DNA of 64,000 nucleotides from Escherichia phage ECO103 4-12-1. Positions 18,823 to 19,788 of this stretch are shown piece after piece. The position numbers were made by a program, and so were the translations under genes. Location of the stretch: the sequence record OR844650, one strand, 5' to 3'. Under the pieces are notes generated by a model. It ran no database searches and was not told where the DNA came from. It saw nothing but the letters and a program-made list of their open reading frames with translations. The number at the start of each line of letters is the position of its first letter. Position 1 is the first letter of the stretch.

Positions 18823-19788
18823 TTAGAAATCTTCGTATTCGTACCCTTTTGCAAGTACTAGCTTCTTAAGCTTTTGCATAGCTTCACTGTACTTTCGGTG
18901 TATTGATGAACGGGATTTAACATATTTTCCATTATCATCAACAAAACCATTATCAGCAATCTCACGAAGCGTTTCAGGTTCATATTCACCTAGACCATGA
19001 ACACGATGGATAATCTCACGTTCTTTAGTACTCAATTCGTTAGTCAGTTCATTGATAGCATAACGTAAAGGTGCACGAATACTATCAACATTGAGGTTAA
19101 AATCAGAAGCAGGTGAATGAATAATGTCACCTAGTGTACCATCGGTAACACCGTCTAATGGTGCATCCAGAGAAGTGTATTCGCTTTGAAATAACAAACA
19201 GTTATTAACATGCTGAATCTCAATCCCAGTACCCTCTGAGATTATTTCAGGAGTTGGGCGAACACCATGTTTACGCATATATTCCTGGCAGAATCTTTTT
19301 ACTTTGATCTTATGAACACTCATATAACGTGGGAAGTGTACCATATAGTTAGCGTCAGAACTTTCGTTATAAACTGTCATGTAAATACTAGAAGAAGCAT
19401 AGGTAATGAACTTAACATTCTTATTAAGATCAAAGGTTTTTAGTGCTCTCATGAACCCCTCAACACCATATGAAATCTTATCTTCAAATGGGATATAACA
19501 AGTACATTTACTTGCTACATCAATAATAAGTCCATAATTGTAACGAACTAACAGTTCAGTGTTTTTCTTTACATTGATACCAGCTTGAATATCACGAATT
19601 AGATCTTCATTGGAAACATTTGGTGGTCGCTTAAGTGTAATATTATATTTGAAACTGCTTTGTACTTTACCTTCATTTTCATCTTTATCTTCAACGAAAT
19701 CTAAGGCTTCTAGTGTGTTGACTTCTTCATTAGCAAAACATTCATCCAGAACTTCTTCGGCAATTGTATTTAAATCAAGCTTTTTCAC
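18823..19788 (-). CDS. RNA polymerase sigma factor, sigma70 family (regions 2, 3 and 4)
   Basis: FMRALKTFDLNKNVKFITYASSSI (region 2), HFPRYMSVHKIK...RPTPEI (region 3), ETLREIADNGF...SRSSIHRKYSEAMQKL (region 4); GTG start with AGGAGA RBS. Confidence 0.85.
   Translation of the reverse strand: MKKLDLNTIAEEVLDECFANEEVNTLEALDFVEDKDENEGKVQSSFKYNITLKRPPNVSNEDLIRDIQAGINVKKNTELLVRYNYGLIIDVASKCTCYIPFEDKISYGVEGFMRALKTFDLNKNVKFITYASSSIYMTVYNESSDANYMVHFPRYMSVHKIKVKRFCQEYMRKHGVRPTPEIISEGTGIEIQHVNNCLLFQSEYTSLDAPLDGVTDGTLGDIIHSPASDFNLNVDSIRAPLRYAINELTNELSTKEREIIHRVHGLGEYEPETLREIADNGFVDDNGKYVKSRSSIHRKYSEAMQKLKKLVLAKGYEYEDF

Follow-up and report, generated by a model that had tools for sequence, protein, structure and literature searches.

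The 64,000-nucleotide stretch of DNA analysed here (the window; record OR844650, Escherichia phage ECO103 4-12-1) encodes a sigma-70-family factor that probably serves as the middle-gene sigma of the phage: an early product, made from a host-sigma-70 promoter, that would steer the E. coli core RNA polymerase to a separate, middle class of promoters. We give this reading a probability of roughly 0.6. The gene would be transcribed early, and its product would bind the host core and direct it to promoters of the form tG(G/A)GACA-N16-(g)TG(a/c)TATAAT. Transcription would then pass from host sigma-70 (TTGACA-N16/17-TATAAT) to the phage sigma and from it to a gp55-like factor (ATAAATA), the gene for this late sigma being itself under a putative middle promoter. 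As an annotation the gene is ordinary, and phage sigmas that retarget the host polymerase are of a known kind. Its existence is not new because it already carries the GenBank label 'RNA polymerase sigma factor' in the Asteriusvirus phages G17, 121Q, PBECO4, and Sharanji and is mentioned in several earlier papers. What we add, and infer from comparisons, is a conserved hairpin in the HTH of region 4.2, the loss of the tryptophan dyad, and the assignment of a promoter class with a residue-base code. Our search of the literature returned no experiment on any member of this sigma family and no promoter analysis for Asteriusvirus; the RaK2 genome paper mentions neither the sigma nor promoters.

The window is 98-99% identical to the Asteriusvirus jumbo phages G17, 121Q, PBECO4, and Sharanji, and matches the reverse complement of approximately 43-110 kb of 121Q. 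Its source is a 121Q/PBECO4-type phage of the genus Asteriusvirus, i.e., a RaK2-like jumbo phage. The sigma ORF, whose limits are exactly those given in Table 1, is the fifth and last co-oriented ORF of an operon behind a host-type promoter. The 22-nt gap immediately 5' of it contains no promoter-like site. A terminator is annotated at the same place in phage G17 and matches the one we found downstream of the stop codon. It is plain from the sequence, although our consensus terminator scan missed it; base pairing of the T-run with a flanking run of A is the probable reason. The window has 18 sites of the type TTGACA-N16-18-TAnAAT against 1.0 expected, and 18 out of 18 are on the minus strand; this is the hallmark of an early region driven by host sigma-70. 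The orthologous genes of RaK2, GAP32, and CBB lie in the same early region, and the CBB paper (PMC5259590) placed the sigma homologue in the predicted early region, for which it likewise proposed transcription driven by host sigma-70. The ORF directly 5' of the sigma gene (19810-20307, minus strand) shows weak similarity to HslV peptidases (phrog_1040, E = 1e-6) and has no match in Pfam; the ORF at this position in fEgEco12 is annotated as HslV.

Profile, sequence, and fold searches agree that the protein belongs to the sigma-70 family and has regions 2, 3, and 4, as a previous reading made from the sequence alone had concluded. Pfam Sigma70_r3 matches residues 162-226 with 37.7 bits (cutoff 25.3), whereas Sigma70_r2 (23.0 bits, cutoff 24) and Sigma70_r4 (22.7 bits, cutoff 24.1) score just below their cutoffs, the latter covering only positions 4-28 of the 50 in the profile. 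PHROG 351, 'RNA polymerase sigma factor', is the sole match in that database (E = 5e-60), with none to the gp55 families PHROG 234 and 12791. In NCBIfam the protein is most similar to RpoD and RpoS, but every score is far below the family cutoff, including those of groups 1 and 2: RpoD_Cterm aligns over its full length (E = 8e-25) with 87.8 bits against a cutoff of 354, and RpoS reaches 70.3 bits against 378.7. A phmmer search of PDB sequences recovered only sigma factors, and residues 373-578 of E. coli sigma-70 align with residues 74-279 of the phage sigma, at about 25% identity and with regions 2, 3, and 4 in the same order. The AlphaFold2 (AF2) model has confident sigma-2, sigma-3, and sigma-4 domains joined by a disordered 3.2 linker, and Foldseek, queried with it, returned only chains of sigmaS, sigmaA, and sigma-70 (probability 1.0), ranking those of the sigma-70/sigma-S type first. 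The sequence-only reading had also called the factor complete, which is true for regions 2-4 only because region 1.1 is absent and region 1.2 is at most a fragment (Pfam Sigma70_r1 gives no match). The non-conserved region of the E. coli factors is also absent. The N-terminus has instead a conserved acidic segment, with low AF2 confidence in the first 50 residues and a single short helix (60-68) before region 2.1.

Region 2 combines a conserved pocket with altered surroundings. The residues that accommodate -11A in sigma-70 (F419, K426, F427, T429, and Y430) are all kept, as F119, K126, F127, T129, and Y130, and so are N383 and P453; F127, T129, Y130, and N84 are shared with cellular sigmas. 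With both pockets conserved, that for the flipped -11A and that for the flipped -7T, the -10 hexamer would be read much as sigma-70 reads it. FITYASSSI (127-135), RPTPEI (177-182), and SRSSIHRKYSEAMQKL (292-307), the strings singled out in the sequence-only reading, are all present, but the first is not a plain match to FSTYATWWI: the W433/W434 dyad is replaced by S133/S134, and is missing in every member of the family. The melting motif YATWWIRQ becomes YASSSIYM..Y and departs from that of groups 1 and 2, with R436, Q437, T440, and R441 replaced by Y, M, Y, and N, which removes the -12 readers Q437 and T440. In region 3.0, PVHMIE is replaced by PRYMSV (153-158), and the readers of the TG motif, H455 and E458, become Y and V. 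Several of the core-binding residues of region 2.2 (Q406, E407, and N409 in sigma-70) are also changed. One could see in the lost dyad and the changed region 2.2 a decoy that occupies the core polymerase or host factors without initiation, or an acquired gene in decay. We find this very improbable: the gene is intact in 69 out of 69 genomes spanning 30-100% identity, the DNA-contact architecture and the insertion described below are conserved, and group 3 and group 4 sigmas are not known to carry the dyad either.

The most distinctive feature is in region 4. The Pfam match halts at profile position 28 because eight residues are inserted in the HTH turn (Table 1); their in silico removal restores a full-length match (33.6 bits, positions 4-50 of 50). 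In the AF2 model the inserted residues form a beta-hairpin between the two HTH helices, with strands at 282-283 and 289-290 and pLDDT of about 85. We delimited the family with an exhaustive HMM search, which gave 19 representatives (E ≤ 1e-30) that stand clearly apart from generic sigmas (beginning at about 1e-27). The insertion is present in 19 out of 19, as G[FYL]xDxxG, and the recognition helix that follows differs by subgroup; metagenomic relatives show further versions of it, such as ITTLHRRI, NSTMSRRY, and AISLYRYY. In the window's protein, R293, S294, S295, H297, and R298 are equivalent to R584, E585, R586, R588, and Q589 of sigma-70, and R584 is the only one of these -35 readers to be kept. 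The claim of an altered -35-recognition helix is thus upheld. The broader claim of a divergence of region 4.2 also stands, but it overlooked the insertion in the HTH turn and the replacement of the -10 readers (W433/W434, Q437, T440, H455, and E458).

Table 1. Positions of the sigma gene, its signals and regions, and related features (window coordinates unless 121Q is named)
Feature	Position	Strand	Description or evidence
Sigma-70-family factor CDS	18823..19788	-	GTG start (19788-19786), 321 aa; 99% identity to annotated sigmas of PBECO4, G17, and 121Q
Shine-Dalgarno AGGAG	19795..19799	-	6 nt 5' of the sigma GTG; direct sequence reading
Intrinsic terminator 3' of the sigma stop	18790..18814	-	Stem GGTTGGC/GCCAACC, loop ATAA, seven T
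Nearest promoter 5' of the sigma gene	21355..21383	-	Perfect host-type TTGACA-N17-TATAAT; drives four small ORFs and the sigma gene
Four co-oriented ORFs between promoter and sigma gene	19810..21320	-	21069-21320, 20734-20994, 20309-20728, 19810-20307
Sigma region 2 (residues 80-146)	19351..19551	-	Sigma-70 alignment, family alignments, AF2 helices 73-146, pLDDT ~80
Sigma region 3 (residues 162-226)	19111..19305	-	Pfam Sigma70_r3, 37.7 bits
Sigma region 4 including HTH (residues 241-313)	18850..19068	-	Pfam r4 partial, full after deletion; AF2 pLDDT 79-87
Eight-residue insertion DNGFVDDN (279-286), HTH turn of region 4.2	18931..18954	-	MAFFT against cellular sigmas
Recognition helix SRSSIHRKYSEAMQKL (292-307)	18868..18915	-	Sigma-70 alignment, MAFFT; covaries with promoter box
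Middle-class candidate promoter GGGACA-N16-TATAAT	8539..8566	-	5' of ORF 8460..8077; equivalent to 121Q site 101439
Middle-class candidate promoter GGGACA-N16-TGATATAAT	34114..34141	-	Abuts tRNA-Ser(tga) and tRNA-Arg(tct)
GGTTGACTTCGGTCAGCC copies	313-330, 5212-5229, 6292-6309, 7869-7886, 8052-8069, 11294-11311	-	
Gp55-like late sigma	121Q 321985-322824		279 aa

The sequence-only reading had set this full sigma against the use of the smaller gp55 by T-even phages. The contrast does not apply: the genome is that of a RaK2-like jumbo phage, not of a T-even phage, and it encodes a gp55-type sigma too. The latter is gene 591 of 121Q, which lies outside the window next to SbcCD-like genes; Pfam returned nothing for it, and its identity comes from PHROGs (phrog_234, E = 8e-18) and from tblastn matches to cyanophage gp55. 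The sigma-70-like protein is hence not used in place of gp55, and a late role for it is unlikely because the phage also encodes this gp55-type late sigma. Indeed, that the factor serves late genes, one of the two options left by the sequence-only reading, is the least probable of the explanations we considered. Nothing specific speaks for it, and a T4-late-like motif precedes the structural genes, whereas the sigma gene is part of an early operon. Within the RaK2-like clade, 69 records have the sigma-70-like gene and 71 the gp55-like one, and essentially every genome has the former. Ecwhy_1, which we considered as a natural knockout, is said to lack the sigma factor in the fEgEco12 paper (PMC13070987); tblastn finds the gene there (MH791411.1, 1665-2630, 99.7% identity), and its absence is an annotation artefact. 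The gp55-like sigma of 121Q exceeds T4 gp55 by about 100 residues, and it is much better conserved between genera, with 73-78% identity versus 35-44% for the sigma-70-like factor.

We searched for promoters in 261 upstream regions, obtained by calling ORFs on the 121Q genome, using k-mer enrichment and then anchoring on -10 boxes. The k-mers gave host-type boxes, the T4-late-like ATAAATA (32 occurrences against 1.9 expected), and terminator hairpins. The anchoring revealed a third class, tG(G/A)GACA-N16-(g)TG(a/c)TATAAT, one form of which is tGGGACA-N16-GTGATATAAT; motif discovery of this kind had been suggested along with the sequence-only reading, and it did bring out the additional class. 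The pattern G[GA]GACA-N16-TAnAAT has 17 matches on the coding strand and none on the other (0.6 expected), its one-base control variants are not enriched in 121Q, and an unbiased dyad scan recovers GGGAC/GAGAC-N17 independently (19 sites against 0). A G at -14, for which we did not select, is present in all 17 sites, versus a TG there in 5 out of 39 early promoters. Downstream of these sites lie genes of replication, recombination, and nucleotide metabolism, with those for primase, an exonuclease, and topoisomerase II and the DNA polymerase region among the targets, as well as some tRNAs and the gp55-like gene. We call the class middle on the basis of this gene content, which is also the basis of the label early. 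Its existence favours, on comparative grounds, the first half of the earlier suggestion that the phage redirects the polymerase to its own middle or late promoters. The intergenic regions of 121Q left after setting aside early, middle, and late motifs contain no further class: the search there for a fourth one yielded only terminator hairpins and two variants of known motifs, CTTGCA (early-like) and ATTAAATA (late). Two of the middle-class sites lie in the window (Table 1).

The promoter class is kept at orthologous positions in other genera, where its upstream box differs. The CBB promoters described as 'divergent RpoD-like' (TGAAACG-N13-TGnTATAAT; PMC5259590) line up position for position with the middle class, share its architecture, as do those of GAP32, and include a site before the CBB gp55-like gene; their box is GAAACG, in contrast to GRGACA in Asteriusvirus. 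The same paper neither assigned them to a sigma nor remarked on the insertion. The window shows no enrichment of the CBB form, TGAAACG (10 occurrences against 8.2 expected).

Homologues of the window's sigma occur throughout the RaK2-like clade, with identities of 44% in RaK2 and K64-1, 37% in Munch, 35% in GAP32, CBB, and BF, and 31% in XaC1. For 11 phages we set the recognition helix of the sigma beside the promoter box. The helix RSS(I/V/L)HR goes with the box TG(G/A)GACA in 121Q, A4, and fEgEco12, and RTSLHR with TGGGACA in Munch. In EJP2, RCTIHR is found with TGAGACA and TGAGATG, and in Hallingskeid HSTIHR with TG(G/A)GA(T>C), where T occurs in 7 out of 10 sites. BF, CBB, and Kaldavass have KATLSR and TG(G/A)AAC(G/A), XaC1 has KPTLSR and TGAAAC(G/A), and K64-1 has RGTLHY and TTGAAC(A). 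Across these phages, changes in the box go together with changes at the equivalents of sigma-70 residues 584, 585, and 588. An S, T, or C at the 585-equivalent goes with G at '-33' (121Q, A4, fEgEco12, Munch, Hallingskeid, EJP2), and A, P, or G with A (BF, CBB, Kaldavass, XaC1, K64-1). A C at '-31' accompanies R or K at the 584-equivalent, and the H of Hallingskeid is accompanied by T there in 7 out of 10 sites; EJP2, with R, has one C and one T. An R at the 589-equivalent goes with a 5' G, and the Y of K64-1 with TTGAAC. K64-1 is not a clean third state: its box is ambiguous to align because it is shifted 1 bp away from the -10 at most sites, often in the absence of TG. The independent events are few: roughly two concern '-33' and a single one '-31'. 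The sigma of Munch is 44% identical to the BF sigma and 38% to the 121Q one, yet has the helix residues and the box of 121Q.

The covarying pairs are those established for sigma-70, in which R584 contacts -31 (R584A prefers A:T) and E585 and R588 contact -33 (reviewed in PMC2613000). This suggests that the remodelled helix of region 4.2 would dock in the canonical geometry and read the upstream box, with R293 at the C of '-31', S294 and H297 at the G of '-33', and R298 at the 5' G. Covariation with the box also supports, only indirectly, the predicted binding of the core RNA polymerase by the phage sigma and the predicted promoter-specific initiation. A surrogate housekeeping sigma, which would replace sigma-70 on the core and serve TTGACA-type and GRGACA-type promoters alike, e.g., once a phage factor has inactivated or displaced sigma-70, would be compatible with the TATAAT common to both classes, with -35 boxes that differ by only two bases in Asteriusvirus, with the retention of R293 and of the -11A pocket, and with RpoD and RpoS being the best profile matches. 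It is nevertheless unlikely: none of E585, R588, and Q589 is retained, the box changes in concert with the helix of the phage sigma, and the middle box of BF, CBB, and XaC1 (GAAACG) is far from TTGACA while the host-type box remains TTGACA (in 121Q, K64-1, and CBB).

The middle-gene sigma reading has counterpoints. In GGGACA-N16-TGnTATAAT, 4 of the 6 bases of the upstream box agree with the sigma-70 -35 consensus, and the extended -10 is perfect. The middle class need not require the phage sigma because host sigma-70 could probably use such promoters of Asteriusvirus unaided. Furthermore, no feature of the class varies less than TG, yet the residues that read it in sigma-70 are unconserved in the phage sigma, and the core-binding residues of region 2.2 are altered. 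A different arrangement would be a phage activator of the GRGACA box working with host sigma-70, like MotA/AsiA in T4, with the phage sigma serving other promoters, such as the early CTTGCA variant, or another role. T4 relatives do use sigma appropriation for middle genes, a class CTTGC-N18-TAnAAT does exist in 121Q (16 sites, versus 0 on the opposite strand), and the invariant TGn is the motif read by H455 and E458 of sigma-70 (PMC2613000). We nonetheless hold this arrangement to be rather improbable. An independent activator would not predict a box that varies in step with sigma residues at canonical contacts, and the CTTGCA sites sit among early-type tiny-gene arrays; a tblastn search of 121Q with an approximate T4 AsiA query also gave no significant match (best E 0.055), which is a weak argument. 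We infer that the phage sigma itself, rather than host sigma-70 plus another factor, binds the core and reads the box.

In T4, middle transcription depends on the appropriation of sigma-70 by AsiA and MotA, and late transcription on gp55/gp33/gp45. T4 middle promoters are sigma-70-like, often with an extended -10, and have a different upstream box. Asteriusvirus resembles this scheme in its proposed three-stage programme, in middle promoters that couple a sigma-70-like -10 with another upstream box, and in a late stage with a gp55-type sigma and a TATAAATA-like motif. It differs in that a whole sigma appears to replace the remodelling of host sigma-70. Other phages encode sigma-70-family factors, e.g., gp28 of Bacillus phage SPO1 (for middle genes) and gp36 of phiEco32. 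By analogy with these, an early phage product would replace the host sigma on the host core and lead it to phage-specific promoters; they are smaller and more divergent, whereas the sigma described here resembles RpoD in regions 2-4 and is encoded alongside a gp55-type sigma. If confirmed, the middle-gene sigma would be a second answer among T4 relatives to the problem of middle genes, by a full sigma instead of a remodelled host one. The analysis also gives a testable regulatory map for a 350-kb phage, with three promoter classes, three sigmas, and the late sigma gene under a putative middle promoter, and it names a few residues that would determine which promoters are recognised.

A wider reading, which we regard as possible but doubtful, is that the family consists of naturally diversified, orthogonal sigma/promoter pairs for an E. 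coli-type core, with a readable code (the 585/588-equivalents for '-33', the 584-equivalent for '-31', and the 589-equivalent for the 5' G), and that the hairpin of the HTH turn is a new functional element of region 4. The hairpin might contact the conserved T or the A-tract immediately 5' of the box or, alternatively, might give immunity to a phage factor that disables region 4 of host sigma-70. Were this reading true, T4-related jumbo phages would have exchanged AsiA/MotA appropriation for a dedicated middle sigma, and, if confirmed, the pairs would be ready-made for use with the E. coli core polymerase.

Several other features of these genomes are worth reporting. ORF 8460..8077 of the window (gene 199 of 121Q, 'structural protein') has, on the minus strand, both a middle-class promoter and a T4-late-type TATAAATA (starting at 8504). 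Seven tRNA genes are clustered in the window at 31069-34895 (minus strand), one of them a tRNA-Ser whose anticodon, ACT, is unusual (32413-32504), and a CTTGCA-type promoter at 34171 is just 5' of the middle promoter of the tRNA-Ser(tga)/tRNA-Arg pair. Two further regions of 121Q lie beyond the part that corresponds to the window. Between 137 and 155 kb, 121Q has arrays of tiny genes, each with a variant promoter aaaaaGTACTTGCAA-N16/17-TATAAT and, after it, a hairpin in the 5' UTR that is conserved, GAGAGCGGGAA..TTCCCGCC. At 117-131 kb (minus strand) about a dozen RCC1-like genes are found in tandem, each after the same terminator hairpin and a tATTAAATAtagTATAAT module, which is a variant of the late motif. 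Finally, the hairpin GGTTGACTTCGGTCAGCC, with a UUCG loop, occurs six times on the minus strand of the window against 0 expected, and every copy is followed by a T-run and then by TATAAT. These copies look like fused terminator/promoter cassettes because the 5' arm of the stem is a TTGACT -35 box at promoter spacing.
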